A stretch of DNA of 64,000 nucleotides, from NCBI GenBank assembly GCA_963706695.1, contig CAVPNC010000013.1, positions 16,348-80,347 on the forward strand, written 5' to 3'. This stretch comes from an uncultured Chloroflexia bacterium (GTDB lineage Bacteria > Chloroflexota > Limnocylindria > Limnocylindrales > CSP1-4). Every line of letters starts with the position of its first letter. The stretch's first letter is position 1. The position numbers and the translations under genes are program-made. This document shows positions 3,085-53,303 of this stretch, in pieces. The notes under the pieces were generated by a model that saw only the letters and a program-made list of their open reading frames with translations, did not search any database and was not told where the DNA came from.

Positions 3085-5826
<2,742 letters not shown>

Positions 5827-8711: not shown

Positions 8712-10259
8712 GTGCGAGCCCTGCTCTCGGTCGCAGATCGTGCCGGCATCGCCGATCTGGCGCGCGAGCTGCTTGACCAGGGGATCGAGGTCTATGCCAC
8801 CGAGGGCACGCGCACAGCGCTGTCCGAGGCCGGTGTGGCGGTTTCGCCTGTCACCGAGCTGACCGACATGCCGGCGCTCATCGGCGACCAGGTCAAGACC
8901 TATCACCCCCAGATCTACGCCGGCATCCTGGCCCGCCGGCACCTGCCGGAAGACCTCGAAAGCCTGGCCCAGCACGGCATCGGTGCCATCGACATCGTGG
9001 TCGTGAGCATCCGCCCGTTCGCGCCCCAGGTGGGCCGGCGCGTCGTGGGCATCGACGAGGCGGTGGAGATGATCGACGCGGGCGGTCTCTCGCTGCTCGG
9101 TGCCGCGTCCCGCAACTTCGGGGGAGTGGCCGCGGTCTGCGATCCCGACGACTACCCCCTGCTGCTCGACGAGATCCGTCAGCATGGAGCGGTCTCGGCA
9201 GAGGTCCGCCAGCGCTTCGCGGCCAAGGCCTTCGGCGCGATCGCTGCGTACCAGGGTGAGGTCGCGGCCTACCTCGACCACATCTGCGGGACGCGCTTCC
9301 CGGAGCAGCTGAGCATCGTCCTGCGCAAGGAGCGGGACCTGCCCTACGGTGAGAACCCCCAGCAACGTGGGGCCTTCTACCACGAGACCACGCACCGCTC
9401 GCGCTCCCTCGCCGACGCCGAGCAGGTGCAGGGCCCGGAGCCGACCTTCAACGACCTCGTCGACCTCGACGCCGCCTACCGCATGGCCTCGGACTTCGCC
9501 TCCCCCACCTGTGCCATCGTCAAGCAGCGCACGCCCGTGGGCCTGGCCTCGCACGATGAGACGCTGACGGCCTACCGGCGAGCCCTCGCAGGCGACCCGG
9601 TGACGGCCTACGGCGCGGTCATCGCCTTCAATCGCGAGATCGACGAGGCCATCGCCCGCGAGATCGTGCTCAACCCGTACGAGGGCGTGGCGGCGCCGGC
9701 CTACTCCCAGGGCGCCGTGGCCCTGCTCGCGGGCCGGCCACAGCTGGCCGCCCTCAAGGTGCCGGCCCCACCGACGGATGGCCTCACCGACTACGGCATC
9801 GCGGAGCTCGACTTCCACCGGATCGAGGGTGGCCTGCTGGTCGAGACCAAGGACTCGCTGGACATCGACCACGCGCAGCTCAACGTGGTCACGCGCCGGC
9901 GGCCCACGCTCGAGGAGCTGACCGACCTGATGTTCGCCTGGCGCGCCGTGCGCCACGTGACCAGCCTGGCGGTGGTGGTGGTGAAGGGCGCCCAGCTGGT
10001 GGGCGTCGGGGCCGGACAGCCCAGCCGCCTGACGGCGACGGAGATCGCCCTGCACCGGGCGTCCGACCGAGCGGCGCGCGCCGTCCTGGCGTCTGATGCC
10101 TACTTCCCCTTCGGTGACGCCATCGCGCTGGCGGCCGAACGAGGGGTGACCGCCATCATCCAGCCGGGCGGTTCGATCCGCGATGAGATGGCCGTGGAGA
10201 TCGCCGATCGCCATCACCTGGCCATGGTCTTCACCGGGCGGCGTCACTTCCGCCACTGA
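8712..10259 (+). CDS. purH: bifunctional AICAR transformylase / IMP cyclohydrolase
   Basis: MGS-like N-domain (ALLSVADRAGI..L...GIEVYATEGT) and an AICARFT C-domain ending in IIQPGGSIRD...FTGRRHFRH. GGGAGGAG SD. Confidence 0.95.
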   Translation: MRALLSVADRAGIADLARELLDQGIEVYATEGTRTALSEAGVAVSPVTELTDMPALIGDQVKTYHPQIYAGILARRHLPEDLESLAQHGIGAIDIVVVSIRPFAPQVGRRVVGIDEAVEMIDAGGLSLLGAASRNFGGVAAVCDPDDYPLLLDEIRQHGAVSAEVRQRFAAKAFGAIAAYQGEVAAYLDHICGTRFPEQLSIVLRKERDLPYGENPQQRGAFYHETTHRSRSLADAEQVQGPEPTFNDLVDLDAAYRMASDFASPTCAIVKQRTPVGLASHDETLTAYRRALAGDPVTAYGAVIAFNREIDEAIAREIVLNPYEGVAAPAYSQGAVALLAGRPQLAALKVPAPPTDGLTDYGIAELDFHRIEGGLLVETKDSLDIDHAQLNVVTRRRPTLEELTDLMFAWRAVRHVTSLAVVVVKGAQLVGVGAGQPSRLTATEIALHRASDRAARAVLASDAYFPFGDAIALAAERGVTAIIQPGGSIRDEMAVEIADRHHLAMVFTGRRHFRH

Positions 10260-16904: not shown

Positions 16905-17740
16905 GGACCGACCGCATCCCCGGCCTGGCCATCGTGAAGGGCATGCTCTTCGCCGTGCGCCAGGTCTTCCGTCCTGGGCTCACGGTGCGCTATCCGGAAG
17001 AGCAGAACCCCATCAGCCCGCGCCACCGCGGCCGGCTCCTCCTGGTCTACGACGAAGCGGGCACGCTCAAGTGCGAGACCTGCTTCCAGTGCGCGCAGGC
17101 CTGTCCCATCGAGTGTATCGACATGGGCGGCGTGGATACGCGCAACCGCTATCACGTGCACTGGGGCGCAGCCGAGCAGTACGCCGAGCGCCGCGAGGAG
17201 TCAGCCCTGCGCCGCTCCGGCCGACCCGTGCCCGATCGCACCTTCGATCCCTTCGAGACCATCGACCTGCGGCCGGTCGACGAGATCCTTGCTGCCGGCA
17301 AGTACAAGCCCAGCCGCTCGCTGGCCATGCTCGAAGCGGTGCAGGGCGCCTACGGCCACCTGCCCGTGGCGGCCCTGCAGCACATCGCCCACCAGACCGG
17401 TGCCAACTACGCCGAGCTCTATGGCATGGCCACCTCCTACCCGCACCTGCACTTCGAGCCGCCGGTCGGCCACGTCGTGCGCGTCTGCCGCTGTGCGCAG
17501 TGCACCCTGCTCGGCGGCGGCCGCGTGCTGGCAGCCTTCCGCGAGCATCTGAGCACCGACGTCGGCGGCGTGAGCCCCGATGGTGCGGTCCGCCTCGCGG
17601 TCACCGAGTGCGGCGGGTCCTCCCACGGCAGCGCGTACGTCGAGGTGGACGGGGAGCCGCTGCCCAAGTCCAGCCCCGAGGACGCGGCCACCATCGCCGC
17701 TGCGCTGCGTGCCACCGTGCCGCAGGGGGAGGCCGCATGA
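16901..17740 (+). CDS. fusion protein: NuoI N-terminal half (single 4Fe-4S motif) + NuoE-like thioredoxin-fold domain
   Basis: The GTG at 16901 overlaps the nuoH stop (GTGA). TVRYPEE..PRHRGR..KCETCFQCAQACPIECI is NuoI-like; SLAMLEAVQGAYGHLP...VCRCAQC...TECGGSSHG is NuoE-like. The 5' part of track ORF 16472.. is an out-of-frame read-through of nuoH. Confidence 0.8.
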   Translation: MRTDRIPGLAIVKGMLFAVRQVFRPGLTVRYPEEQNPISPRHRGRLLLVYDEAGTLKCETCFQCAQACPIECIDMGGVDTRNRYHVHWGAAEQYAERREESALRRSGRPVPDRTFDPFETIDLRPVDEILAAGKYKPSRSLAMLEAVQGAYGHLPVAALQHIAHQTGANYAELYGMATSYPHLHFEPPVGHVVRVCRCAQCTLLGGGRVLAAFREHLSTDVGGVSPDGAVRLAVTECGGSSHGSAYVEVDGEPLPKSSPEDAATIAAALRATVPQGEAA

Positions 17741-19059
17741 GCCTGCCCGTGCTGGCCGGGGCCAAGGACTGGCCGCAGGTGCTGCTGGCCCGAGCCGCGG
17801 ACGCGGCCGTCGCCGACATCGCCGAGGCGGAGGCCGGCGGGGCCTGGACGGCCTTCAGGCGCGCCACCGCTGAGCTGTCGCCTGAAGCGGTCATCCACAC
17901 CGTCACCGAGTCGGGCCTGCGCGGGCTCGGCGGAGCCGGCTATGCCACCGGCGCCAAGTGGCGCGACTGCGTCTCCCAGGCCGATCCGGTCCACTACGTC
18001 GTGGCCAACGGCTTCGAGGCCGATCCAGGCGCCCAGCTCGACCGCTCGCTCATGGAACGGGATCCGCACCTGGTGGTCGAGGGCGTGGCCATCACCGCCT
18101 GGGCGGTCGGAGCCGAGACCGCCATCATCGCCGTCTCCTCCGCTGCCCCCGTGGCCGCGGAGCGCCTGCGCACCGCGATCGACGAAGCCGTCGAGGCCGG
18201 CTACATCGGCCGCTCCGCCGACGGCCGCAGCCTCCAGCTCGAGGTCCGCGAGGTCACCGGCTCCTTCGTGGTCGGCGAGGAGACGGTGCTGCTGCGAGCC
18301 CTCGAGGGCAAGCGCGCCCAACCGGACCAGCGCCCGCCGTTCCCCAGCCGCGAAGGCCTGTGGGGCAAGCCCACGGTGGTCAACAACGTCAAGACGCTCG
18401 CAGCCGTGCCCTGGATCGTGGCTCACGGCGCCGGCGCCTATGCCTCGCTGGGCCTGCCCGAAGCCCCCGGCACCACGCTCGTCCAGCTGGGTGGCGCGGT
18501 CAAGAAGCCCGGTGTCGTGGAGGTGCCCTTCGGGACCACGCTGCGGCAGATCCTCGACGGCCCCGGCGGCAAGACCACGGGCTCGCTCAAGGCCGTGCTG
18601 GTGGGTGGCCCGAGCGGCGGCTTCCTGCCGCCCGACGCACTCGATACGCCCCTGACCTACGAGGCCCTGCGGGAGGCGGGGGCGCTGGCCGGCTCGGGTA
18701 CGCTGCTGGCCCTCGACGAGAGCGCCTGCATCGTGGACGTGGCCACGCTCATGACGCGCTATCTCAATGACAACGCCTGCGGCAAGACCATCCCCTGTCG
18801 CATCGGAACCCGGCGCATGGCCGAGCTGGGCAGCGCCATCTGCTCGGGGCACGTGCGGCCCACTGACGCGGCGCTGCTGGGTGACCTCGCCGCGGACGTG
18901 CGAGCAGCGGCCCTCTGCGGCCTGGAAGCTGACGCTGCCAACCCTCTCCTGAGCGGGATGCGATACTTCGCGCCTGAGTTCGAAGCCCACACCGAGCGTG
19001 GTGAATGCCCGGCCGGTGTGTGCCAACCCATTCGTCTAGCCGGTGCCGTGCTGTCATGA
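17737..19059 (+). CDS. nuoF: NuoF-like (51 kDa) subunit, divergent cofactor motifs
   Basis: ATGA overlap at 17737. GLRGLGGAGYATGAKW, GEETVLLRALEGKRAQP, PPFPSREGLWGKPTVVNNV and the cluster region NACGKTIPCRIG...ALCGLE. Confidence 0.8.
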   Translation: MSLPVLAGAKDWPQVLLARAADAAVADIAEAEAGGAWTAFRRATAELSPEAVIHTVTESGLRGLGGAGYATGAKWRDCVSQADPVHYVVANGFEADPGAQLDRSLMERDPHLVVEGVAITAWAVGAETAIIAVSSAAPVAAERLRTAIDEAVEAGYIGRSADGRSLQLEVREVTGSFVVGEETVLLRALEGKRAQPDQRPPFPSREGLWGKPTVVNNVKTLAAVPWIVAHGAGAYASLGLPEAPGTTLVQLGGAVKKPGVVEVPFGTTLRQILDGPGGKTTGSLKAVLVGGPSGGFLPPDALDTPLTYEALREAGALAGSGTLLALDESACIVDVATLMTRYLNDNACGKTIPCRIGTRRMAELGSAICSGHVRPTDAALLGDLAADVRAAALCGLEADAANPLLSGMRYFAPEFEAHTERGECPAGVCQPIRLAGAVLS

Positions 19060-21668
19060 CCGACACGCTCCCTGAGATCATCCAGCAGCAGCCGGGCCCG
19101 TCACCCGACGAGGCCACCGAGCGGCTGCTCACGACCCAGTCGCCGCAGCGGCCGCAGACATCCGCGGCCTTCGAGATCGAGATCGACGGCCGCACCCTGA
19201 CCGCCCGCGAGGGCCAGACCATCCTCGAGGTCTGCCGCGACGCCGGCATCGAGGTGCCCACGCTCTGCTACGAGCCCAAGCTGCCCGGCTTCGGTGCCTG
19301 CCGCATGTGCGTGGTCGAGGTCGAGGGTGAGGACACTCCGCCCATCTCGTGCTCGCGCGAGGCTGAAGCGGGCATGGTCGTGCAGACGCAGACCCAGCGG
19401 CTGCGGGAGATCCGCAAGACCAACCTGGAGCTGATCTTCAGCGACCACAACGCCTACTGCCTGCCGCCCTGCCAGAACAAGTGCCCCAGCCACATCGACA
19501 TCCCCGGCTTCCTCAAGGCCAACACCGAGGGTGACTTCGTCGAGTCCACGCGCATCTTCAAGCGCACCATCCCCTTCCCCTCGACGCTCGGGCGGGTGTG
19601 CCCAGCGCCGTGCGAGGAGCACTGTCGCCGCGACGAGGTCGAGGAAGCCATCGCCATCCGCGACAGCCACCGCTACGCCGGCGACCAGGTGCTCAAGGCC
19701 CAGGCTGAGGGCGTCAAGCCGCCCCTGCCCTTCGACCAGCAGCCGTCCACGGGCAAGCGCGTGGCCGTCATCGGCTCCGGGCCTACGGGCATGTCAGCTG
19801 CCTACTACCTCTCGCTCAGCGGCCACGAGGTCACCGTCTACGAACGCGACCCGGAGGCCGGCGGCATGCTGCGCTACGGCATCCCCGAGTACCGCCTGCC
19901 CAAGGAACGTGTCCTCGAGCCCGAGTACGAGGCCGTGTGGGAGCTCGGCGCCAGGCTCGTGACGGGCGCGGAGCTGGGCGTGGACTTCACCATCGACGAC
20001 CTCCAGAACCAGGGCTTCGATGCGGTGCTGGTGGCCATCGGCTGCTACGACACCAACAAGCTGGGCATCCCGGGCGAGGACGCGGACGGGGTCATCGACG
20101 GCCTCGAATACCTCCGCGTCGCCACGCTCGGACTGCCCTACCCCGAGCACAAGGGCAAGCGCGTCGTGGTCATCGGCGGCGGCTTCACCTCCATGGACTG
20201 CTCGCGCACCTCGGTGCGCCAGGGCTGCACGGAGACGACCCTGGTCTACCGCCGCGACATGAAGGACATGCCCGCTGCGGACGAGGTGCACGAGATGCTC
20301 GAAGAGGGCGCGCGCGCCATCTTCCAGGCCTCGCCCACGCGCGTCGTCACGGACAAGGACGACAAGGTCACCGGGGTCGAGTTCCAGCGCATGGCACTGG
20401 GCGAGCCGGACGCCTCCGGCCGGCGCCGACCACAGCCGGTCGAGGGCACCGAGTTCATCATCGACTGCGACCGCGTGCTCCTGGCCATCGGCCAGGGTCC
20501 CAAGCTGGACTGGCTTGAGCACGGCGCCGAGGGCATCGAGAAGACCAAGCGCTGGCGACTGGATGCGGACGCGGTCACCTTCGGTACCGGGCGCGCAGGC
20601 GTCTTCGGGGCCGGGGACGTGCGCACGGGCGCTGCCACGGTGGTGGAGGCCATCGCCGAGGGGCGACGCGCGAGCTACGCCATCGATGCCTATCTGCAGG
20701 GCCAGGACCTCGACGAGATCCGCACGCGCCAGACGCTCGCGGAGCCGCAGCCCGAGTTCCTCTCCATCGTGCCCTACACCAGCGAGGTCAAGGAGCCGCG
20801 CATCCGCCTGAAGGCCATGCCGGCCGAGGAGCGCAACAGCTCGTATGTCGAGTACGAGATCCCTTACACCGCCGAAGAGGCCATGTCCGAGTCAGCACGC
20901 TGCCTCCAGTGCACCTGCGAGGCCATCGGCTATTGCGACCTCCGTCGGCAGGGCATCGAGTACGGCACCACGCTGCAGACGCTTGAGCCCAAGCGCACCG
21001 GCCTCTCCTTCCGCAGCGTGAGCGAGAACCGCTTCACCGGCACCAACCACGACTACATCCGCGACGACAGCCACTCCTTCATCCTGCGCGAACCCTCGCG
21101 CTGCATCGACTGCGGCCGCTGCGCCAACGTCTGCCGCGAGGTCGTGGGTGCGGCCTGCTACGACTTCATGCGCACCGGCTTCGACACGCTCGTGACGACG
21201 CCGCTGGACATGAGCCTCAACACCACGCCCTGCGTCTCCTGTGGCCGCTGTGCCGAGACCTGTCCCACGGGCGCGCTCATGCCCAAGCCACGCGTGCTCG
21301 AGAAGTACGAGGTGGACGAGTCTCGCTGCATCCTCTGCGGCATCTGCGTCGATGCCTGCCCCTACGACGCGCTCCGCTGCGGACCGGACTTCGAGCTCGC
21401 ACACGAGTCGCGCGCGGAGCCGCAGATCGACCTCATCGCCCTCGCTGCGATGGACCGTGACTCGGAGATGAGCTACGTCCGCCGCGAACGCGACTGGCTC
21501 AGCCGCGCCCAGGCTGATGGTCGCGACATCCCGCACGAGCGGCTGCTGCCCATGCTGCCGCCGGGACTGGCCGGGAGCAGCGGCAACGGGAACGGTAGAA
21601 CCAGCACCGTCGCTGACTCCACCACCGGCGCAGCCGGGGGTGGCGCAGCGTCGGTCCACCACAAGTAG
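19056..21668 (+). CDS. chimeric Fe-S flavoprotein: NuoG-type [2Fe-2S] + inserted GltD-like NAD(P)H/FAD module + NuoG-type 4Fe-4S motifs + NuoI-like C-terminus; no molybdopterin-like domain
   Basis: ATGA overlap at 19056. LCYEPKLPGFGACRMCVVEV..ISCS; CLPPCQNKCPSHIDIP..GRVCPAPCEEHC; VIGSGPTGMSAAYYL; VVIGGGFTSMDCSRT; GVFGAGDV; CIDCGRCANVC; CVSCGRCAETCP; CILCGICVDACPYDALRCGPDFELAHE. Confidence 0.8.
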   Translation: MTDTLPEIIQQQPGPSPDEATERLLTTQSPQRPQTSAAFEIEIDGRTLTAREGQTILEVCRDAGIEVPTLCYEPKLPGFGACRMCVVEVEGEDTPPISCSREAEAGMVVQTQTQRLREIRKTNLELIFSDHNAYCLPPCQNKCPSHIDIPGFLKANTEGDFVESTRIFKRTIPFPSTLGRVCPAPCEEHCRRDEVEEAIAIRDSHRYAGDQVLKAQAEGVKPPLPFDQQPSTGKRVAVIGSGPTGMSAAYYLSLSGHEVTVYERDPEAGGMLRYGIPEYRLPKERVLEPEYEAVWELGARLVTGAELGVDFTIDDLQNQGFDAVLVAIGCYDTNKLGIPGEDADGVIDGLEYLRVATLGLPYPEHKGKRVVVIGGGFTSMDCSRTSVRQGCTETTLVYRRDMKDMPAADEVHEMLEEGARAIFQASPTRVVTDKDDKVTGVEFQRMALGEPDASGRRRPQPVEGTEFIIDCDRVLLAIGQGPKLDWLEHGAEGIEKTKRWRLDADAVTFGTGRAGVFGAGDVRTGAATVVEAIAEGRRASYAIDAYLQGQDLDEIRTRQTLAEPQPEFLSIVPYTSEVKEPRIRLKAMPAEERNSSYVEYEIPYTAEEAMSESARCLQCTCEAIGYCDLRRQGIEYGTTLQTLEPKRTGLSFRSVSENRFTGTNHDYIRDDSHSFILREPSRCIDCGRCANVCREVVGAACYDFMRTGFDTLVTTPLDMSLNTTPCVSCGRCAETCPTGALMPKPRVLEKYEVDESRCILCGICVDACPYDALRCGPDFELAHESRAEPQIDLIALAAMDRDSEMSYVRRERDWLSRAQADGRDIPHERLLPMLPPGLAGSSGNGNGRTSTVADSTTGAAGGGAASVHHK

Positions 21669-35515: not shown

Positions 35516-36771
35516 AGATCGGCCTCGTCACGCCCTACATCTACCCGCTCCCGGGCGGCGTCAACGCCCACGTGGGCTACCTCTACGAGAACCTCGTCAA
35601 GCGCGGTCATGACGTGCGCATCATCAGCGCCACGCACGGGCCCCAGCGCTCGAGCGAGGGCGACATCATCCGCCTCGGCTACGGCTGGTCCGTGCCCACC
35701 AACGGCTCCGTGGGCACGCTCACCGTCTCACATCGCTACCCGCATCTGGTGCAGGAGATGCTCGAGCGTGAGCGCTTCGATGTGATCCACTTCCACGAGC
35801 CGTTCGTGCCCTTCCTCTCGCTGGTGATCCTGCGCTACTCCAAGGCGGTCAACATCGCCACCTTCCACGCCTACTCCGGCTTCAGCCCCTCGTACGAGTT
35901 CGGCAGACGCTTCATGAGCACACCCGCACGCCGGCTCCATGGCCGTATCGCGGTCAGCGCCGCGGCCATGCACTTCATCAAGCGCTACTTCCCGGGCGAC
36001 TACAAGGTCATCCCCAACGGCGTGGACATCTCGCAGTTCGACGACGTGCCGCCGTTCGCACGCTGGAACGACGGCGTGCCCAACATCCTCTTCGTCGGTC
36101 GCTTCGAGCAGCGCAAGGGGCTGATGTATCTGCTGCGCGCGTACTACCAGCTGCGCCTCGAAGGGCTCGGCTGCCGCTTGCTGGTGGTGGGTAACGGTCC
36201 CCAAGCGGCGGAGGCGCGCCGCTACATCCAGTCACGCCGCCTCGGAGGCGTGGAGATGCTGGGGCGCCTCTCGGACCACGACAAGGCCCGGGCCTTCGCC
36301 ACCGCCGACATCTACGCCGGGCCCGCCACGGGGCAGGAGTCCTTCGGGATCGTCCTGCTCGAAGCCATGGCTTCCGGCACGCCCATCGTGTGCAGCGACA
36401 TCCACGGCTACAAGGGAGTCGTCCGGCGCAACGAGCAGGCCGTGCTGGTGCCGCCACGTGACGTGGAGGCGCTGGCGGCAGCACTGGGGACCCTGCTGCG
36501 CGATCCGCTCCTGCGCCAGCGCATGGGCGAGTCCGGTCGCGAGCGCGTGGTGCAGTACGGCTGGGAGAACATCACGGCCAAGGTCGAGGACTACTACGGC
36601 TTCGTCATCCGACGCCTGGAGGCGAGAGGTGGCCTGCCCGCGGGCTTCGACGCGGAGATCCCGCCAGCTCCCAGTCGGGCGCCGGGCCTGTGGAGCCAGG
36701 CGGATGGCCTCGAGGACGAGGCGGGCGAGGAGTCACTGGCCACGATCGAGGCTTCTGAAGCCGGGGTCTAG
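35512..36771 (+). CDS. pimA: GT4 glycosyltransferase, phosphatidylinositol alpha-mannosyltransferase-like
   Basis: N-terminus MKIGLVTPYIYPLPGGVNAHV (compare the PimA N-terminus) and E-x7-E ESFGIVLLEAMASGTPIV. Synteny with the PIP synthase and acyltransferases. Confidence 0.82.
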   Translation: MKIGLVTPYIYPLPGGVNAHVGYLYENLVKRGHDVRIISATHGPQRSSEGDIIRLGYGWSVPTNGSVGTLTVSHRYPHLVQEMLERERFDVIHFHEPFVPFLSLVILRYSKAVNIATFHAYSGFSPSYEFGRRFMSTPARRLHGRIAVSAAAMHFIKRYFPGDYKVIPNGVDISQFDDVPPFARWNDGVPNILFVGRFEQRKGLMYLLRAYYQLRLEGLGCRLLVVGNGPQAAEARRYIQSRRLGGVEMLGRLSDHDKARAFATADIYAGPATGQESFGIVLLEAMASGTPIVCSDIHGYKGVVRRNEQAVLVPPRDVEALAAALGTLLRDPLLRQRMGESGRERVVQYGWENITAKVEDYYGFVIRRLEARGGLPAGFDAEIPPAPSRAPGLWSQADGLEDEAGEESLATIEASEAGV

Positions 36772-39700
36772 CCTCGCGGATCGGGGGTGTGCCCGGCGTC
36801 AGCGCCCCAGCGCCGGGCGGCGACGGCCACCGCCAGCACGAACAGCACCGTGACCCCGCCGAGCACGAGCATGGCCGGCTCGAAGATGCCGTCGTCGCTG
36901 GCCGGGTCGGTGTTGACCGAGAACTGGAAGTCCCAGTTCCAGGTCGGCAGCAGCCCCTGATAGAGGTGGGCCAGGTCCGCTGGCAGCGGCAGGCCGGCGA
37001 TGTTGGGGTACCACAGCAGCAGCCAGATCCCCGCCGCAGCGAGGATGCCCACCACCAGGCGCCGTGGATCACGGGCCCGCAGCACGGCGGCTGCCGGCAG
37101 GGCCAGCACGATCAGGCCCAGCAGGGCCAGCACGTCCGAGCTCAAGGTCACCCCCGCCGTGGAGGCGGTGTCGAGCGCAAGCAGCGCCCCGACCACGCCC
37201 GTGAGCGTGGCCAGGGCCACGGCCACGAGCGCCACCACCCACCGGCCCTGCCTGCCGGGATCCGCACGGGAGGCACGCCAGCCGATGAGCCCGGCCATGG
37301 CCGCTCCGGCGCCGACCACGAAGAGGGCCGCGACACCACCTTCGCTGAGCTGGGCGGTGCGCGTGACCTGACTGGCGCAGGCCACCCCGTCGGGATGGGC
37401 CACGGCCGTCCCGGAGATGATGCACAGGGGGGTGCGCAGCAACCACAGCAAGGGGATGGCGACGATGGCCGATGCCGCCGAGGCCCGCGCCAGGAACCAG
37501 ACCCGCCACGACGGCCCGTGCCAGAGCTCGCCCAGGAAGTAGGCCAGGGCCAGGAGCATGAAGGGCAGGCTGGCATAGACGTGATACTGGAAAGCGGCAC
37601 GGTCCACGCGAGCCCAGGGCAACCACATCGCCGCCCACATCAGCACCACCATGGTGAGCGCCAGGCTGCGCCGTCGCCACGCCGCCCAGGCGCTGAAGCC
37701 GATGCCGGCGATACCCAGCCAGAAGATGACGAGGTTGCCGGTGTCGTAGATGAGCCCGGTGGTGCCGTCGCTGTAGCGTCCCTGGAAGAACCACACCGGC
37801 TTGAGGTCGAGCGGCCAGGCCCACCAGGGTGAAGAGGCCGCGTGCTCGGCGCGCAGGTTGTCGTGATACTGGTACATGGACTCCGTGAGGGCCGCGATCG
37901 TGCGGCCGCCCTCGGTGCCCTCTGCCAGGAAGGGCAGGCTGCCCAGCAGGGGCACGCCCCAGTCGTTGCCCAGCTCGACCCAGGGCGAATAGGTCACCAG
38001 GTAGACGATCACGGGCAGCACCGTGAGGGCGGCCATGGTCAGCAGCCAGGGCAGCACGTGCACCGGTCCGGGCCGCAACCACGCGCTCGTGCCGGGGGCC
38101 GGACCGCGCGCGCCGACAGCCCACGGTCCATGGCCGGCCATGGCCGCGATCAGGGCCACGACCGCGACGGCCACGCCGATCACCATGGAGAGGCCGCCGA
38201 GGACAGCTAGCTGCAGCAGCCACAGGGCCACGCCGGCGGCCAGGGGCAGGGCCACGGCCAGGATCACCTCCACCTTGGTCCAGGGGATGGGTCGACGGAT
38301 GATCCCGGCCGTCAGCAGGCCGGTGAGCACGAGCATGAGCACGAGGAAGACCCAGTTGCGTACGACCTCCGACCCGGCCTCGGGTCGGATGGCCATCGTG
38401 CCCAGGACGGCGGTCATGCCCACCATCACCAGCAACGCCAGGGCACGACCCAGGGCTGAGCGCAGGAGCACCAGCAGGCCCAGCCCCCCGATGGCGTAGA
38501 GCGCGACCCACTTCGAGGCCAGAGCGAGCCCCAGGGCCACGCCCGCCCCGGCCACCAGCCCGGCCGCGGTCCAGGGTCGACGCGGTGCCAGGTAGAGCGG
38601 CGCCAGCAGCAGCACCGCCAGCAGCACGAAGGCGGTGACGTAGACGTCGTTCATGGCGATGCGGGCGTTGGCGAAGAGCATGCCCTCGCCAAGCACCAGT
38701 CCCGCTGTGATGAGCCCGATGCTTCGCCTGGCGAAGAGCACTCGGGCAAGCAGGTATGCGAGCGCGGCCGTGAGCGCCCCCAGCAGGACGCCTGGCACTC
38801 GCCAGCCGAAGGCGTTGCCGCCGATATCGATGCCGGCCACGCGTCCATCGCCGGCGATCGCCAGCAGCTCGCTGCGGTCGGCGTCAGGCCGCTCGGAGAG
38901 CGAATCCGCGAGCAGGATCCGGGGCTGGTGCGGGAGGGGCACATCGATGAAGACGGAGCGGCCCTTGGGCTCGACCACGTAGACGGTGGGGCCGCCGCTC
39001 GGGGCCACCCCGAGGGCGTGCATCAGCTCGGCGGATCCGTTCCAGACGAGGCCTTCCACCGCGCCGGGCATCCAGACCGACTCGGGCAGGGCCAGGCCGT
39101 CGTCGCTGACCGAGATGGTCTCGAGCGCGGGGCCTGCGGCCACGTAGAGCGTGGGCTCGTCGCTGTCGGGCTCGGCCAGCGCGAGCGCCCGCGCCGGCTC
39201 GTCCGTGGGGATGGTGTCGAGCGGATCCAGGCTCCACACATCGAGGATGTCGACGCCTGCCGCGTCGGCCACCGCCAGTAGCGGCGCCGACTCCAGCTCT
39301 GCGCCGGGCAGCCGACCGTCTTCGATGAACGCCGACAGGCCCTCGACGGTGTCGGCGTCAGGCCAGGCCAGGATGGTCACGAAGCCGTCGCGCGCGAGCA
39401 GCTCGGTGAGTCGACCGGGGTCGTCGTCGAGCACGCTCGCGAGCAGGTCCGCGGTCGCCTTGCGGTCGGGCAGCGCTCTGGTGTCGACGATGAGCCGTTC
39501 GGCCCAGGGCAGCTCGACCACGTCCTCGACGCCCACGGCCAGTCGCTCCGAGAGCAGCTCACCGGTGTCGGTGTCGAAGCTGGCGATGGATCCCAGGGTG
39601 ACCGCCACGAGGGCCGTGTCAGTGACCAGCAGTCGCTGCACCGGTGCGCCTGGCCCGAACGAGAACGGGATGGCGGCATCGACGATGGCGGCAGGGTCGG

Positions 39701-41870
39701 CGTCCGCGCCGAACCGCTGCGCATCGAACCACGTGGTATCGAAGCGGTAGAGGCGACCGGCAGGATCGGCCGCGTAGAGGAGGTGATCGTCGCCGTCCAC
39801 GGCCACGGCAGAAGCAGCCAGGGGCAGCTCCTCGAGCAGCTCGCGTGTGGCCAGGTCGTAGACGCCCAGGCGGTCGCCAGCGGCCACGTAGAGGCGATCG
39901 CCGTTGCGGCGACCTTCGTCGTCGTCAGGGGCCCAGCGCGCCTCGATGGCGGCGTCCTCGGCGTTCATGCCCAGATCGGCCGTACCGGTGACCTCGTTGC
40001 CACCGGCAAGGCGGATGCCCCAGGCCATGGCGTACTTGGCCAGGTGTGGATGGGTGAACTCGTAGATATCGTGCGGCTGGCCGTACTCCCACTGCTGCAG
40101 GAACTCGGCGGCGGTGCGCGCGTGGTAGACCTCGTCGAAGTACATGCGCGTCGGCTGGTCCAGCCGGAAGCCACGCAGCGTCAGCGTCAGCACCACCAGC
40201 ACCACCAGCACCAGCAGGTCCAGCCGGTCGATACGCCCACCGGGCTCGAAGCGCAGGAGCTCGCTGCGATCTCGGCGCAGCGAGCCCCATGAGAGACGGG
40301 CCACGAGATGGTCGAGCAGGCTGAGCTGCGCCGGTGTCGGCGGTGCCGGGGCGGGAGCCGCAGGATAGGCCGACGGCGGGACCGGGGCGGTGGCCCCCGC
40401 GGGGCCGGGCGGGACCGGGGCAGGAGCCTGAACCGGGCGTCCTGCGGCGTCCGGTGCGGCGCGAGCATGGAAGGCATCGGGGCTGGTGCGCAGTCCGGGA
40501 CGCAGCTGCAGGGCCACCCACAGGCCCACACCCGTCTGCAGCAGGGCTGAGAGCGTGATCAGCGGCTGCGTCCGGAACCACTCACCGAGGGGCAGGGTCT
40601 CGACGTTGGCGGTGCCGTAGAGCGGGAGCGTGAGGATGGCGTGGAGGTTGATGAAGGCCCCCACGCTCAGCAACAGCAGCGCCACCGCCCAGCGGCCGCT
40701 GACGACGGCCAGGAGGGGCATCAGGGCCACGGCCGGGAAGATGTAGCGCTCGTGGACGCGCGTGGGCAGGATGAAGAAGGCGATGGCCAGGAAGGTCACC
40801 GCCACGATGAGCGTCCAGCGGTCGTCGCGAACCGCGCCGCGGAACACGCCCCAGGCGAAGCCGACCGCCAGCAGCGCGGCCCCGATGGCCACTCCCGGGA
40901 TGGGGCCCAGGAGACCAACGGTGTCGTCGCTCCAGCGCAGGGCGGCGGCCAGCGAGGGCTCGCCACCAGCGCCCACCAGGGCCCAGCCGTTGAAGGCGTT
41001 GACGCTGAGGTAGCCGTAGCCGCCGGCCGTGCCGAACATGCGCTCGAGGTACTCGAGCGGCCCCATGCCGAAGGGCAGGGCGATGACGAAGAACGCGGCC
41101 CAGGCCGCAACCAGCGCCGTCAGCAGGCGGATCGGCCCCTGATGCGTGGAAAGCCAGGCCGCCAGTCGTCGCGGCGCCCAGGGCTCGTGCCGCGGGCCCG
41201 ACCCCGATCGCAGGAGGTGGCGCTTGATGAGCACCGCCGCCACGATGGGGATGAGCACGACCCCGAACTGGGGCTTGACCAGCGCGGCCGTGGCGGCGAA
41301 GGCGGCCGCGCCCTCGCTGTTGCCACGGATGAGGGCAGCCAGGCCCAGCAGGATCACCAGCGCGCCGGCGGCATCGGTCTGGCCCCACAGGGCCGAGTCG
41401 TAGAAGGAGACGGGGTTGAAGACGTAGAGCGCGGCTGCCGCCAGGGCCAGCGCTTCGCTGCGGGAGCCCGGCCAGGTCCAGCCCCGGACGAGACGGTAGA
41501 GCACGTAGCCGACGGCGACATCGAGCAGGATGGGTGGAAGCTTGATCAGCTCGGTGGCGCTGACCGCTGCGCCCGAGAGCGTGCCCACCAGCCACAGCGC
41601 GTAGAGGTAGGCCGGCGGATAGTCGGCGAAGCCGGCGTTGGCGTAGAAGCCGGCCGGCCCGTGCTCCGCCATCGAGCCGGCCCACGAGGCGTACGACGAG
41701 AGGTCCGACTCGAAGCCAGAACCGGGGAACAGCACATAGGCGATGACCAGCCGCAGCGCCAGGCCTGCGAGCAGCAGGACCACGATGGCGGGGCTCAGGG
41801 CGAGCGCGGACAGGGGGCGGACCGGCTCTCCGGGGCTACGGCCGACCCCACCCACCGGGGTAGAAGTCAC
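36768..41870 (-). CDS. 1700-aa polytopic membrane protein with two GT-C-type glycosyltransferase modules (N-terminal DUF2029/PIG-V-like; C-terminal PMT/GT39-like with a large repeat-rich insert)
   Basis: N-module: FESDLSSYASWAG...FADYPPAYLYALW plus about 10 TM helices. A Pro-rich linker follows. C-module: MYFDEVYHARTA..THPHLAKY, an insert of about 430 aa, then GNAFGWRVPG and a PMT C-terminal signature HAASSPWWAWPLDLKPVWF. Confidence 0.75.
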   Translation of the reverse strand: MTSTPVGGVGRSPGEPVRPLSALALSPAIVVLLLAGLALRLVIAYVLFPGSGFESDLSSYASWAGSMAEHGPAGFYANAGFADYPPAYLYALWLVGTLSGAAVSATELIKLPPILLDVAVGYVLYRLVRGWTWPGSRSEALALAAAALYVFNPVSFYDSALWGQTDAAGALVILLGLAALIRGNSEGAAAFAATAALVKPQFGVVLIPIVAAVLIKRHLLRSGSGPRHEPWAPRRLAAWLSTHQGPIRLLTALVAAWAAFFVIALPFGMGPLEYLERMFGTAGGYGYLSVNAFNGWALVGAGGEPSLAAALRWSDDTVGLLGPIPGVAIGAALLAVGFAWGVFRGAVRDDRWTLIVAVTFLAIAFFILPTRVHERYIFPAVALMPLLAVVSGRWAVALLLLSVGAFINLHAILTLPLYGTANVETLPLGEWFRTQPLITLSALLQTGVGLWVALQLRPGLRTSPDAFHARAAPDAAGRPVQAPAPVPPGPAGATAPVPPSAYPAAPAPAPPTPAQLSLLDHLVARLSWGSLRRDRSELLRFEPGGRIDRLDLLVLVVLVVLTLTLRGFRLDQPTRMYFDEVYHARTAAEFLQQWEYGQPHDIYEFTHPHLAKYAMAWGIRLAGGNEVTGTADLGMNAEDAAIEARWAPDDDEGRRNGDRLYVAAGDRLGVYDLATRELLEELPLAASAVAVDGDDHLLYAADPAGRLYRFDTTWFDAQRFGADADPAAIVDAAIPFSFGPGAPVQRLLVTDTALVAVTLGSIASFDTDTGELLSERLAVGVEDVVELPWAERLIVDTRALPDRKATADLLASVLDDDPGRLTELLARDGFVTILAWPDADTVEGLSAFIEDGRLPGAELESAPLLAVADAAGVDILDVWSLDPLDTIPTDEPARALALAEPDSDEPTLYVAAGPALETISVSDDGLALPESVWMPGAVEGLVWNGSAELMHALGVAPSGGPTVYVVEPKGRSVFIDVPLPHQPRILLADSLSERPDADRSELLAIAGDGRVAGIDIGGNAFGWRVPGVLLGALTAALAYLLARVLFARRSIGLITAGLVLGEGMLFANARIAMNDVYVTAFVLLAVLLLAPLYLAPRRPWTAAGLVAGAGVALGLALASKWVALYAIGGLGLLVLLRSALGRALALLVMVGMTAVLGTMAIRPEAGSEVVRNWVFLVLMLVLTGLLTAGIIRRPIPWTKVEVILAVALPLAAGVALWLLQLAVLGGLSMVIGVAVAVVALIAAMAGHGPWAVGARGPAPGTSAWLRPGPVHVLPWLLTMAALTVLPVIVYLVTYSPWVELGNDWGVPLLGSLPFLAEGTEGGRTIAALTESMYQYHDNLRAEHAASSPWWAWPLDLKPVWFFQGRYSDGTTGLIYDTGNLVIFWLGIAGIGFSAWAAWRRRSLALTMVVLMWAAMWLPWARVDRAAFQYHVYASLPFMLLALAYFLGELWHGPSWRVWFLARASAASAIVAIPLLWLLRTPLCIISGTAVAHPDGVACASQVTRTAQLSEGGVAALFVVGAGAAMAGLIGWRASRADPGRQGRWVVALVAVALATLTGVVGALLALDTASTAGVTLSSDVLALLGLIVLALPAAAVLRARDPRRLVVGILAAAGIWLLLWYPNIAGLPLPADLAHLYQGLLPTWNWDFQFSVNTDPASDDGIFEPAMLVLGGVTVLFVLAVAVAARRWGADAGHTPDPRG

Positions 41871-41973: not shown

Positions 41974-43347
41974 ATGCTCACCGACGCCGCGCCTGAAGCA
42001 CCGCCCCTCGAGACCGGTCCCGGTGCTCGGCTGGAGTCGCTCTTGTGGCGGGTCGACCCGGTGTGGGTCTCGGTGGCACTCTTCGGTCTCGCGCTCGTCG
42101 TCTATCTCGGCTCCAACCCGGTCCGCAACGACTTCTACGACCACTTCGTGTGGCAGGCCGACGCCTTCCTCCAGGGCCGCGCGGAGATCGAGTACCCGGT
42201 CGTCGAGGGCCCCTTCCAGAACGGCCACTTCCAGGATGTGCTGCCGGTGGCCCCCGACCGCGCCCAGATCCCGTTCCCGCCCCTGCCAGCGGTGGTGCTC
42301 ATGCCCTTCGTGGCCGTGTGGGGCCTGGGCACCAATGGCGCGGCGGTGGCGGCCGTGCTCGGGGCGCTCAACGTGGTCCTCTGCTGGGTCATGCTCCTGG
42401 GCGTGACGCCGCGCCGGTCGGCGGCGCTGCTGGGCACGCTCTTCTACGCCTTCGGCACGGTGGCCTGGTACGCGGCCATGCTGGGCACGACCTGGTTCCT
42501 GGCGCATGTGGTGGCCTCGACCTTCCTCTTCATCGCCATCGCCACAGCCGTACGCGCCGACACCGCCGCGATGCGCGCCCAGGCCGTCGGTGGTGGACAT
42601 GCGGCCGGCCGTCAGCTGGCGGCCGGCCTTGCCTTCGGGGCGGCCGTGACCGCGCGCCTGACCACCATCGTGGCCGCGCCCTTCTTCGTCTTCGTCGGTG
42701 GTGGACGTGGCTGGTTCGGGCGCGCCCTTGCGGCCGGGGTCGGCGCGCTCATGCCCGTGCTGCTGCTGCTGGGCTACAACCTCGTCACGACCGGCGAGCT
42801 CTTCCATCCGGCCTACGACTACCTCTACGAGGTCGAGTACCGCCCCAGACCAGAGCTGGTGAACCCGGATTGGGCAGCGGAGGACCCCCGCTACATCCCC
42901 CAGAACATCGGCATCATGCTGGGCGCGCTGCCGGTCTCACCCTTGCTTGACGATCCCGCCTGCGCTCTCCAGCCGTTGACGCTGGGCTCGCTCTTCGACC
43001 GCGCTTGTCCGATCCTGCAGCCGGACCCGCTGGGCATGAGCCTCCTGCTGACGAGCCCGGCCTACCTCCTGGCCCTGCCGGTCCTGCTCTCCGACTGGCG
43101 GCGACGACTGGTGGCCGGGGCGGCGCTGGCGGTGCTGGCCGTGGCCCTCGCGGACCTCATGCACTTCAGCCAGGGCTGGGTCCAGTTCGGCTATCGCTTC
43201 AGCAACGACTTCGCGCCCTTCGCGACGGTGCTGGTGGCGCTCGGCATCGCCCGCCTGCGTTCGGGCTGGCTCCCGATCGCGCTCGTGGTCGCCTCCATCG
43301 TGGTCAACGCCTGGGGTGTCACCTGGGGCGTCACGCTGGGGTGGTAG
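41974..43347 (+). CDS. GT-C-fold membrane glycosyltransferase (ArnT/PMT-like, family uncertain)
   Basis: 457 aa, about 11 TM helices. The first periplasmic loop carries acidic/aromatic residues (NDFYDHFVWQADAFLQG). Divergent from the giant GT-C gene. Confidence 0.6.
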   Translation: MLTDAAPEAPPLETGPGARLESLLWRVDPVWVSVALFGLALVVYLGSNPVRNDFYDHFVWQADAFLQGRAEIEYPVVEGPFQNGHFQDVLPVAPDRAQIPFPPLPAVVLMPFVAVWGLGTNGAAVAAVLGALNVVLCWVMLLGVTPRRSAALLGTLFYAFGTVAWYAAMLGTTWFLAHVVASTFLFIAIATAVRADTAAMRAQAVGGGHAAGRQLAAGLAFGAAVTARLTTIVAAPFFVFVGGGRGWFGRALAAGVGALMPVLLLLGYNLVTTGELFHPAYDYLYEVEYRPRPELVNPDWAAEDPRYIPQNIGIMLGALPVSPLLDDPACALQPLTLGSLFDRACPILQPDPLGMSLLLTSPAYLLALPVLLSDWRRRLVAGAALAVLAVALADLMHFSQGWVQFGYRFSNDFAPFATVLVALGIARLRSGWLPIALVVASIVVNAWGVTWGVTLGW

Positions 43348-44882
43348 CCACCGAGGCTCCGGGCGCACGCGCGTCCGACTACGCACTCGCGGCCCTGCCG
43401 GTGATGATGGGTGCCCTCGCGCTCTACATGTCGACCCTGTTGCCCGACGTGGGCGTGTGGGACACGGCCGAGTTCCAGGCCTTGGGTCCGGTGCTGGGCA
43501 CCGCGCACCCCACCGGCTACCCCACCTACACCCTGCTCCTGTGGCTGGCCTCGGTGGTGCTGCAGCCCCTGGGCAACGAGGCCTACCGGGCTGACCTGCT
43601 CTCGGCCCTGCTCATGGCCGGTGCGTCCGCCCTGCTGGCGGTGCGCGTCGTCATGGCCACGAGGCGCTGGGCCCTGGGCCTCGCCACGGGCGCGATCTTC
43701 GCCCTCACACCGGTGGCCTGGACGTGGGGGCTACGGGCCGATCCGCACGCCCTCCACGTCTTCGTGGCCGCGTTGCTGCTGGTCCTGCTCGGTGTGTGGC
43801 AGGCACGGGAGGGCCGCGCCCCGGGCGACGGCGCTCGCTGGCTGCTGGCGGCGGCCGTGGTCTATGGACTGGCCCTGGGCAACCACGCCCTGACCCTGCT
43901 GCTGGCGCCCGGCATCGCGGTCTACGTCCTGCTGGTGTCGCCGCGCATCCTGCGGCGTCAGTGGCGGCTCGTGCTCGCCTGCGCGGCCGCGCTGCTGCTG
44001 GCGGCGGCATCGGTCTACCTCTACCTGCCCCTGCGCTCGGCCATGGACCCGGCACTCGACTACGCCGACCCCCAGACCTGGGAGCGCTTCTGGTACGTGG
44101 TCCTGGGCGAGCAGTTCCAGGGCTCCTACGGACCGCTACCGGCGCTGGCGGAGCTGCTCGGCGGTGTCTGGGACGAGCTCGTGCGTAACGTCGGCCTGCT
44201 GGCCAGCCTGGCGCTGGCCGGAGCCCTGCTGGGCCTGTTGCGCCACCCGCGCCTGACGGTGTTGGCGCTGCTCTGGTTCGGGGGCACCTGGCTCTTCGCC
44301 GTGGGCTACCCCAACGCCGCCATCGAGCGCTACTACCTGGTGCCCCTCCTGACCGCTGCGCTGGCGGTGGGGCTGGCGGCCGACGCGGTCTGGGACGCCC
44401 TGCGCGACCTGCTGGCGCGAAGCGGTCACGCGCTCGGCTACCGCCTGGCCACGAGCGCCCTCGTGCTGCTGCTGCTGGGCCTGGCCGTCGCGCCCGCCCT
44501 CGAGCGCCGTGAGGCCATCGACGCGAGCGGCGACAGCTGGGGCCGGCAGATCCTCGAGTCCACCTTCGAGGTGGTCGAGCCGAAAGCCGTGATCATCTCG
44601 TGGTGGTCGTACTCGACACCGCTGTGGTACGGCCAGCACGTGGAGGGGCGCCGTCCTGACGTGACCGTCATCGATGACCGCGACATCCTCGATGACGGAT
44701 ACGGCGATGTGACCGCTGCCATCGAGGCCCACCTCGGTGAGCGCCCGGTCTATGTCATCCGCCTCGACCGTGACCTGCAGGCCCTGCGCGAGTCCTACAG
44801 GCTGGAGCCAGTGATGGGCGTGCCCTTGGAGATGTACAGGGTGGAGGCGGGGCGCACGGACGCCGGAGGTCCGGCCGACTAG
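43341..44882 (+). CDS. DUF2723/TMEM260-like GT-C glycosyltransferase
   Basis: DVGVWDTAEFQALGPVLGTAHPTGYPTYTLLLW matches the DUF2723 signature (D..E......G.aHPpGYP). Multi-TM N-half and soluble C-half. The GTG at 43341 overlaps the upstream stop; the 5' part of the track ORF (43005..) is a shadow frame. Confidence 0.72.
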   Translation: MVATEAPGARASDYALAALPVMMGALALYMSTLLPDVGVWDTAEFQALGPVLGTAHPTGYPTYTLLLWLASVVLQPLGNEAYRADLLSALLMAGASALLAVRVVMATRRWALGLATGAIFALTPVAWTWGLRADPHALHVFVAALLLVLLGVWQAREGRAPGDGARWLLAAAVVYGLALGNHALTLLLAPGIAVYVLLVSPRILRRQWRLVLACAAALLLAAASVYLYLPLRSAMDPALDYADPQTWERFWYVVLGEQFQGSYGPLPALAELLGGVWDELVRNVGLLASLALAGALLGLLRHPRLTVLALLWFGGTWLFAVGYPNAAIERYYLVPLLTAALAVGLAADAVWDALRDLLARSGHALGYRLATSALVLLLLGLAVAPALERREAIDASGDSWGRQILESTFEVVEPKAVIISWWSYSTPLWYGQHVEGRRPDVTVIDDRDILDDGYGDVTAAIEAHLGERPVYVIRLDRDLQALRESYRLEPVMGVPLEMYRVEAGRTDAGGPAD

Positions 44883-52898: not shown

Positions 52899-53303
52899 CG
52901 ATGGCAACGTGACCCGTACTACAGCGACCTATCCGCGCGTCCTCTCGGAGTGACGTCCCGACACCCAGGGCAGAGGCGCGATCGACATCCCATCGGAGGA
53001 ACCGGGCCGACCCCCCTCGGGCCGTCACGACGGTGGCTCCAGCTTGGGTTTCCGGCACCTGCTCTCGGGGGCCGGGGCGCCAAACCTTAGCACCGGGTTT
53101 CGGGACTGCGCAACGTCTGTCTGATATACCCCCAGGGAGTATTCCCTCCCCCGCGTGCCTCGCCACGCCGCAGGGTGCCGAGCGGCCGTCCGGGACGCGC
53201 TGTTGCGGGCCCACGCGGGCCGGCGAGTGGTGGCCGAACGCACCACCTGAGGGTACTGGGGACACCAGCCGGACCGCTCCGAACCGCACCCCACCACCCC
53301 GCA

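Follow-up and report, generated by a model that had tools for sequence, protein, structure and literature searches.

The stretch of DNA analyzed here, hereafter the window, comprises 64,000 nt from an uncultured Chloroflexia bacterium (assembly GCA_963706695.1, contig CAVPNC010000013.1, positions 16,348-80,347 of the forward strand) and carries an operon for respiratory complex I whose genes all lie on the + strand in the order nuoA-B-C-D-H-[IE]-F-[X]-J-K-L-M-N (Table 1). Subunits A, B, C, D, H, J, K, L, M and N of the Q- and P-modules are all encoded, and nuoH and nuoJ are separated by three genes designated here IE, for a fusion of the N-terminal half of NuoI to a NuoE/BfuC-like domain, F, for a NuoF/BfuB-like protein, and X, for an 870-amino acid (aa) NfnA/StnC-like protein. 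The junctions H/IE, IE/F and F/X are 4-nt overlaps of start and stop codons. NuoD scored about 300 bits against Nqo4, NdhH and the 49-kDa subunit versus 144-218 bits against Mbh/MBS homologues, and both NuoD and NuoB look like normal subunits of a quinone-reducing complex. An initial annotation, made from the sequence alone and centered on X, had placed this gene beside nuoH and nuoJ; nuoJ does adjoin it, but its 5' neighbor is the nuoF-like gene and nuoH lies upstream of the whole cassette.

Table 1 Coordinates of the nuo operon genes and of the domains of IE and X, numbered from the first nucleotide of the window.
Feature	Start	End	Strand	Basis
nuoA	12598	12957	+	Pfam Oxidored_q4, E 2e-26
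nuoB	12948	13631	+	Pfam Oxidored_q6; N2 motifs CCxxE, GDC and GCPP in translation
nuoC (start codon uncertain)	13586	14290	+	Pfam Complex1_30kDa
nuoD, quinone-reducing type	14287	15510	+	Pfam Complex1_49kDa
nuoH, 465 aa	15507	16904	+	Pfam NADHdh
IE, 279 aa, NuoI N-half + NuoE/BfuC-like thioredoxin-fold [2Fe-2S] domain	16901	17740	+	NCBIfam, Pfam, PDB
IE: NuoI N-half, aa 1-88 (N-terminal helix, YPEE...RHRGR, C58-x2-C61-x2-C64-x3-C68-P)	16901	17164	+	TIGR01971 positions 1-66 of 121
IE: NuoE/BfuC-like domain, aa about 125-270	17273	17710	+	Pfam 2Fe-2S_thioredx; closest in PDB: HydC, NfnC, StnA
F, NuoF/BfuB-like FMN/NAD(H) subunit, 440 aa	17737	19059	+	Pfam Complex1_51K, SLBB and NADH_4Fe-4S only
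X, NfnA/StnC-like subunit + NuoI C-half, 870 aa	19056	21668	+	Pfam, NCBIfam and PDB matches
X: [2Fe-2S] domain (cluster A1, N1b equivalent), C71, C82, C85, C99	19167	19394	+	Fer2_4, E 1.4e-20; Cys invariant or nearly so
X: GltD/NfnL-type unit, two [4Fe-4S] (A6, A7), FAD and NADPH sites	19458	20705	+	Fer4_20, Pyr_redox_2, alignments
X: cluster A3 motif C616-x2-C619-x-C621-x5-C627, N5-equivalent by position	20901	20936	+	Aligned to NfnA/StnC motif; invariant
X: 2x[4Fe-4S] ferredoxin domain (A2/A4), C683/686/689/693, C726/729/732/736	21102	21266	+	Pfam, conservation
X: NuoI C-half, YEVDESRC758-x2-C761-x2-C764-x3-C768-P...PDFELAH	21291	21425	+	TIGR01971 positions 71-114; invariant
X: C-terminal tail; conservation moderate up to about aa 835, poor in the Gly/Ser/Thr-rich end	21426	21665	+	Conservation profile
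nuoJ	21693	22274	+	Pfam
nuoK	22271	22582	+	Pfam
nuoL	22589	24646	+	ORF/translation; Proton_antipo_N/M in orthologous locus
nuoM	24646	26199	+	Translation, orthologous locus
nuoN	26196	27725	+	Translation, orthologous locus

Domains were called with Pfam and NCBIfam profiles, and structural relatives were identified by sequence search of PDB proteins. The start codon of X, ATG at 19056, overlaps the stop codon of the F gene (ATGA); an alternative in-frame ATG at 19005 would give an 887-aa product, and homologues of 850-875 aa start at the equivalent of 19056. The parse of this open reading frame (ORF) reproduced the boundaries, domain order and all the motifs given in the initial annotation. 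Pfam recognized Fer2_4 (aa 38-113, E 1.4e-20), Fer4_20 (aa 135-214, E 1.6e-17), Pyr_redox_2 (aa 235-536, E 9e-29), a Fer4_7 4Fe-4S dicluster (aa 726-772) and, weakly, Fer4_Nqo3 (aa 676-741, 23.5 bits versus a cut-off of 27), while NADH-G_4Fe-4S_3 (PF10588), the model of the NuoG N5 motif, was matched at positions 1-17 of 40 only (aa 120-136). No molybdopterin domain was detected by Pfam, again as initially annotated. NCBIfam models of the GltD family scored 240-550 bits on X, and the GltD-type motifs proved alignable throughout, as the annotation had supposed. X is colinear over aa 40-767 with NfnA of Caldicellulosiruptor NfnABC (9bov_A, 568 bits) and likewise with StnC of Sporomusa StnABC (8oh5_C, 491 bits) and an archaeal NfnA (9n5u_A, 482 bits), and its GltD-type unit matched NfnB (4ylf_B) with 274 bits.

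These matches are far stronger than that to the NuoG model TIGR01973 (94 bits versus a cut-off of 470), so X was rejected as a simple variant of NuoG. The novel NuoG chimera of the initial annotation thus gave way to the known architecture of NfnA/StnC (BfuA), in which a GltD/NfnL-like NADPH/FAD domain is inserted into a NuoG-like protein (PMC10482914; PMC11829005), FAD being flavin adenine dinucleotide and NADPH the reduced form of nicotinamide adenine dinucleotide phosphate. The alignment stops at aa 767-769 of 870, whereas NfnA and StnC have about 1175 aa. By homology, X is an NfnA/StnC protein without the Fdh-like C-terminal domain and with the C-terminal half of NuoI in its place. Ligand motifs for clusters A1, A2, A3, A4, A6 and A7 are retained; those of A6 and A7 comprise C135, C139, C143, C182, C186 and C190 together with His205, which aligns with Lys170 of NfnA. 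Mutation of this A7 lysine of NfnA/StnC impairs activity. The FAD motif reads GSGPTG and the NADPH motif GGGFTSMD...VYRR (in its longer form GGGFTSMDCSRTSxRQG...VYRR), and the apparently intact NADPH/FAD flavoprotein unit that had been annotated is indeed encoded, with its motifs conserved, within a complex I operon.

The top NCBIfam match of X was NF009454 (PRK12814, "putative NADPH-dependent glutamate synthase small subunit"; 552 bits), in which model positions 5-631 of 657 align with aa 40-696 of X and the [2Fe-2S] plus GltD architecture is the same; X falls below the family cut-off of 916, and the model stops before the second ferredoxin motif and the NuoI half.

The tail that the initial annotation had likened to NuoI is confirmed in its likeness, but is more than NuoI-like: it is the C-terminal half of a split NuoI whose N-terminal half is borne by IE. 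Positions 1-66 of the NuoI model TIGR01971 match IE residues 14-80 and positions 71-114 of 121 match X aa 746-789. When joined in silico (IE residues 1-88 plus X residues 742-803), the halves matched positions 1-114 in one stretch with 99.6 bits (E 9e-29; cut-off 113). No intact nuoI is present in the operon, where no single polypeptide holds both CxxCxxCxxxCP motifs together with the helix and PDFE, and a search that covered the 64-kb window found no second copies of nuoI or of the genes for E, F, D and H. Because the halves rejoin as one NuoI and no intact copy accompanies them in the window, nuoI is split and the three-gene Nfn-type cassette sits inside it. The C-half motif of X begins 22 residues past the CP motif of A4, where cluster A5 is found in the aligned NfnA. 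A mutual-information scan of the two halves in 46 paired species returned only the phylogenetic signal of the variable termini, the halves themselves being nearly invariant. IE Cys72 and X Cys775 were considered as paired cysteines and rejected as semi-conserved residues without co-variation.

The two partner proteins are likewise of the Bfu type. IE starts with a GTG that overlaps the stop codon of nuoH, and its orthologue is also 279 aa long. Residue counts refer to 47 sequences for IE, 70 species for F and 81 species-level relatives for X. The four cysteines of the NuoI N-half motif are invariant (47/47). The [2Fe-2S] site of the NuoE-like domain (17486-17503 and 17609-17623) is non-canonical: its C196-x-C198-x2-C201 part does not vary, Thr replaces C237 in 4/47 and Ser241 stands in for the canonical fourth Cys. 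F scored 376 bits against NfnB, HydB and StnB versus 275 bits against true NuoF. It aligns with residues 116-526 of the 584-aa NfnB, and since only this core aligns, F is missing two parts of BfuB, the thioredoxin-like domain at the N-terminus (B5) and the 2x[4Fe-4S] ferredoxin domain at the C-terminus (B3/B4). Since IE and F both resemble Bfu proteins more than they do NuoE and NuoF, the N-module as a whole is, by homology, of the Bfu/Nfn type.

Within F, the motifs for flavin mononucleotide (FMN) and reduced nicotinamide adenine dinucleotide (NADH), namely G-x-R-G-R-G-G-A-G, K74-W75, G-E-E-T, N-N-V-x-T and G-G-P-x-G-G, are invariant or nearly so in 70/70 species. The Bfu-specific B2 zinc-site residues C331, H418, C424 and C429 are kept in 60/70 and all four are lost in 9. 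The B1/N3 motif reads C348-G-K-T351-I-P-C354...C394 (18778-18798, with C394 at 18916-18918); three of its four ligands and the flanking CGK...PCRIG are invariant, and the site may hold a [3Fe-4S] or an O-ligated cluster beside FMN. None of the 70 F sequences keeps the Asp of the canonical N-[AG]-D-E motif, which is replaced by Phe, Tyr or another hydrophobic residue; in the loci L082 and L085 the motif is intact, as NGDEGDPG and NADEGDPG. F evolves faster than X, with a mean per-column match to the window residue among clade sequences of 0.59 for F versus 0.79 for X.

A scan of species-representative genomes for X retained 80 loci of at least 568 encoding stretches, under titles of Chloroflexota, Chloroflexia, Anaerolineaceae or Ca. 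Limnocylindria/Limnocylindrales metagenome-assembled genomes, and relatives of X with 79-91% identity, drawn from soil and freshwater metagenomes, fell into more than 120 protein clusters. The gene order A-B-C-D-H-[IE]-F-X-J-K-L-M-N, or the part of it left at a contig end, recurred in 81/81 loci, a few of which list nuoM and nuoN swapped. The Fe-S cysteines of X, GSGPxG and the NADPH motif with the Arg pair of VYRR are invariant or nearly so, His205 is invariant and both NuoI halves are essentially invariant among the species of the clade. The best conserved part of X is the A2/A4 ferredoxin domain (mean column conservation 0.97 in 81 aligned sequences). At the other extreme, the Gly/Ser/Thr-rich end of X (aa 836-870, 21561-21665) has a mean column conservation of 0.45, aa 791-835 being moderately conserved. 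Since the same gene, with conserved motifs and the same domain order next to nuoJ, occurs in 81 independently assembled loci, X was rejected as an assembly artefact, against which the initial annotation had left its claim exposed, and equally as a pseudogene or decaying gene. In one long-read contig (L087, 5508-20467) the nuo operon is frameshifted into many short ORFs, an assembly-quality fault and not a biological pseudogene.

The split is not confined to this clade. A full-library search with IE returned full-length fusions down to 27% identity, and a lineage with the source label Thermoleophilia (Actinomycetota) carries the same split-NuoI operon (L088, 6255-20762; L089, 602-15092). There the X-like protein has 824 aa with the same NuoI tail, the rejoined halves scored 110.4 bits on TIGR01971 and BfuB is complete (636-643 aa), keeping the N-terminal thioredoxin-like and C-terminal 2x[4Fe-4S] domains, which suggests that the Thermoleophilia version also interacts with ferredoxin. 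NuoH has 465 aa in the window versus 363-375 aa in Thermoleophilia and L083, with about 100 extra hydrophobic residues before the C-terminal RATYPRVRIDQ; NuoB of the window is extended by about 45 aa at its N-terminus. F is also trimmed in a third Nuo-linked lineage (L083, L084), where it has 468 aa; in L083 it has lost the third B1 Cys (CGRCIPG).

A soluble relative (L085, 97-7726; L086) carries the cassette between genes of pyruvate:ferredoxin oxidoreductase (POR), including porD and porA. In it, a NuoI-N-like half without the N-terminal helix is fused to BfuC and followed by a full BfuB, and a 1060-aa NfnA-like fusion continues from the NuoI-C-like motif into a PorB thiamine pyrophosphate domain; NuoI was still the best match of the rejoined halves (74 bits). 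From this gene arrangement, the split-ferredoxin connector evidently serves a second time here, linking an Nfn module with a 2-oxoacid:ferredoxin oxidoreductase. In Thermoleophilia (L088), L083 and L085, too, A7 has His as its non-Cys ligand, and on this alignment evidence the replacement of the A7 Lys by His is a signature of the split-NuoI family.

The closest described systems are the soluble, ferredoxin-using NfnABC and StnABC. They share with the window the order of [2Fe-2S] domain, GltD/NfnL-type unit, CxxCxCx5C motif and 2x[4Fe-4S] domain in NfnA/StnC and X, as well as NuoE-like and NuoF-like partner genes of the Bfu type in the order C-B-A. In contrast, X has the NuoI C-half in place of the pterin-less Fdh-like C-terminal domain (about 480 aa) and A5, and His205 in place of Lys170 at A7; F lacks the B5 and B3/B4 domains of Nfn BfuB and is short of one Cys at B1; and IE carries a NuoI N-half that BfuC does not have. 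Because its genes are embedded in a nuo operon, the IE-F-X module is predicted to be membrane-bound and to use a quinone as acceptor.

With canonical complex I the window shares an FMN protein, a thioredoxin-fold [2Fe-2S] protein, an N1b-type cluster and ferredoxin-like clusters leading through NuoI and N2 to quinone, and all eleven other core functions are present in its operon. It differs in having no NuoG as such, the N5 motif of X being interrupted by the GltD unit, in the second flavin (FAD) and NADPH site that X adds, in a NuoI distributed over two polypeptides, and in the position of nuoH ahead of the cassette.

Membrane-bound Nuo-Bfu (Geobacter, Nitrospirae and others) and Mbh-Bfu (Dehalococcoides) complexes were predicted by Schut et al. 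2022 (PMC9304861), and in these, too, a BfuABC-type module lies amid the genes of a complex-I-like or Mbh-like operon, where it is expected to stand in for the usual input module. Nuo-Bfu as described there has a NuoG-like BfuA without the GltD/NADPH unit, a full BfuB and an unsplit NuoI; the words "fused" and "fusion" do not occur in that article. Its invariant BfuBC core has six Fe-S sites, whereas in the window B3, B4 and B5 are absent, B1 has three Cys and C1 is non-canonical. The selection made in that study required a 4Fe-4S ferredoxin-type domain, and F would have escaped it.

Degli Esposti 2015 (PMC4758237) described Mbx-like complexes that have a GltD-related flavoprotein where NuoI would otherwise be. 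As in the window, a membrane complex related to complex I is joined to an NAD(P)H flavoprotein of the GltD type, but there GltD substitutes for the NuoI homologue in a complex of the Mrp/Mbx type, whereas the window keeps NuoI in two pieces with a quinone-type NuoD, and its GltD unit belongs to an NfnA-like subunit with several clusters. In the searchable open-access literature, these two studies and papers on Limnocylindria included, neither a GltD/Nfn-type subunit in a nuo operon nor a split NuoI was found.

The gene and domain content, motif conservation, homology and synteny of these loci were seen directly. From them we infer, as to mechanism, the reassembly of NuoI, the routes between clusters, the specificity for NADPH and the direction of electron flow. 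The reading we favor, with moderate confidence, is that the complex would act as a proton-pumping NAD(P)H:menaquinone oxidoreductase, that it would have two nucleotide sites meeting at one Fe-S junction, and that its non-canonical N-module derives from an NADPH-dependent transhydrogenase of the NfnABC/Stn type (Bfu family) and not from NuoEFG. The NuoI halves of IE and X would refold as a single 2x[4Fe-4S] NuoI, each cluster ligated 3+1 across the two chains, and the refolded NuoI would bolt the N-module onto the Q-module (NuoB/C/D/H).

NADPH would enter through FAD and pass its electrons along A7, A6, A3 and A2, and NAD(H) would be linked reversibly to the same A2 junction through FMN, B1 and A1. 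In the soluble NfnABC enzymes the path runs FAD-A7-A6-A3-A2-A1-B1-FMN, and A2-A4-A5 is a dead-end branch regarded as a non-functional evolutionary remnant (PMC11829005; PMC10482914). In the complex proposed here, the A2-A4 branch that is a dead end in soluble NfnA/StnC would have been turned into the quinone exit, with electrons leaving A2 through A4, the NuoI clusters N6a/N6b and N2 to menaquinone. This exit is proposed because X keeps the A4 motifs and because the NuoI C-half starts where A5 was. Electrons might also equilibrate or be exchanged between the NADH and NADPH pools. Dual input of NADH and NADPH, which the initial annotation had raised as one possibility, would accordingly be the best reading of the conserved sites; confurcation of the ferredoxin type is unlikely in this clade because F has lost the N- and C-terminal domains of the ferredoxin branch.

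Several points weigh against this scheme. In F, the second Cys of B1/N3 survives in 6 of the 70 species and is otherwise Thr (47), Ser (16) or Ala (1), and the NuoE-like cluster site of IE is non-canonical, with Ser for the fourth Cys, so the FMN branch may be modified or have lost part of its function. NuoI of canonical complex I takes its electrons from N5, the equivalent of A3, whereas the A4-to-NuoI route is proposed here from sequence position. An ungated junction between NADH and NADPH would dissipate the disequilibrium of the two pools, for which reason gating or another physiological direction may exist. The wiring rests on homology, and the sole AlphaFold2 model of X, a single-chain prediction from a shallow alignment of 31 sequences all at least 79% identical, was unusable, with a mean pLDDT (predicted local distance difference test) of 44 and a pTM (predicted template modeling score) of 0.34.

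The state of the FMN branch bears on an alternative that we regard as unlikely, namely a complex I for NADPH only, in which the FAD site of X would be the sole working entry, the NuoE- and NuoF-like parts would serve mainly as scaffold or regulatory nucleotide site, and the enzyme would act as a proton-pumping NADPH:menaquinone oxidoreductase or, in reverse, as an NADP+ reductase driven by the proton-motive force. It would account for a B1/N3 site short of one Cys in 64/70 species, with a different Cys lost in L083, for the Ser at the NuoE-like site and the occasional Thr at C237, for the hydrophobic residue that replaces the Asp of N-[AG]-D-E and for the faster evolution of F. The near invariance of the FMN/NADH motifs tells against it, however, and the invariance of the three remaining B1 ligands with CGK...PCRIG argues for a working, modified flavin/cluster site, in which Thr or Ser could still ligate iron or a [3Fe-4S] cluster could sit at B1.

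The ancestry of the module lends itself to a second alternative, which we consider improbable: a quinone-linked bifurcating enzyme or energy-coupled transhydrogenase. Here FMN would split the electron pairs of NADH between a high-potential branch to quinone and a low-potential one to NADP+, by analogy with FixABCX, or the reverse confurcation would take place, and formation of NADPH would be coupled to respiration and proton pumping. The module does descend from bifurcating NfnABC/Stn enzymes, the Thermoleophilia version keeps a complete bifurcating BfuB, IE ties the NuoE-like gating domain covalently to the NuoI N-half, and membrane-bound Nuo-Bfu and Mbh-Bfu have been predicted (PMC9304861). 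In the clade of the window, however, the B3/B4 ferredoxin and B5 domains are lost, and the ligands are changed at B1 as well as at C1, the two clusters that make up the published "flavobicluster" site of bifurcation. Moreover, the quinone exit at A2/A4 would lie upstream of FMN, and bifurcation would be unneeded, electron transfer from NADPH or NADH to menaquinone being downhill.

That a soluble Stn/Nfn-like enzyme is merely located in the nuo operon, its NuoI-like pieces being generic ferredoxin motifs and the real NuoI encoded elsewhere, is very improbable: although a POR-linked soluble relative exists and the search for another nuoI was confined to the window, the pieces match complementary, non-overlapping parts of the NuoI model, including the N-terminal helix, YPEE..RxRG and PDFELA, score as one NuoI when rejoined, flank the cassette at the nuoI place (nuoH-nuoJ) of 11-subunit operons in 81/81 loci and in a second phylum, and are joined to their neighbors by overlapping start and stop codons, and X is without the Fdh-like domain on which the stability of StnC and its assembly into tetramers depend (PMC10482914).

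A proton-pumping, menaquinone-reducing complex with two nucleotide sites thus remains our preferred reading. A bolder version of it, held only tentatively, is that a whole NfnABC-type operon was inserted into nuoI of an 11-subunit complex I as a second, independent invention of the N-module, docked by way of a split ferredoxin subunit instead of NuoG. One membrane complex would then couple the pools of NADH, NADPH and, in Thermoleophilia, ferredoxin to menaquinone reduction and proton pumping, either as a respiration-coupled transhydrogenase or as a bifurcating enzyme that depends on quinone. Together with its NuoI halves, the cassette may also be a portable connector, reused in the POR-linked soluble enzyme.

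Elsewhere in the window, Lon (3-1988), ClpB (3085-5826) and PurH (8712-10259) are encoded 5' of the nuo operon. On its other side, a 1700-aa ORF (36768-41870, - strand) has PMT-family (protein O-mannosyltransferase-like) domains confined to its C-terminal third, a TMEM260-like glycosyltransferase is encoded at 43005-44882 and a 706-aa ORF (46351-48471) had no Pfam match. The presence of dnaA at 51519-52907 (- strand) indicates that the window probably lies near the chromosomal replication origin.

The locus, which occurs widely in two major phyla of soil bacteria, represents a new variant of complex I or, equally, of the Bfu family. The NADH-oxidizing N-module of complex I is held to have been gained once, when NuoEFG were recruited onto an 11-subunit ancestor. 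The present locus is a different solution, a transhydrogenase-type module stitched in by way of a split in NuoI, and provides an independent test case for the modularity of respiratory enzymes. Studies of split Fe-S proteins, and attempts to engineer new inputs into complex I, would also profit from a natural two-chain NuoI with shared clusters as a model. If the proposed wiring is true, it describes a proton-pumping complex I that accepts or produces NADPH. These phyla use menaquinone, and NADPH works at a more negative potential than NADH; the greater driving force that NADPH would offer with menaquinone, an argument that parallels the one made for Nuo-Bfu (PMC9304861), would ease the thermodynamic squeeze on a menaquinone-dependent complex I. 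Models of redox balance and energy yield would then change for Limnocylindria and Thermoleophilia, which are very abundant and largely uncultured lineages of soil.

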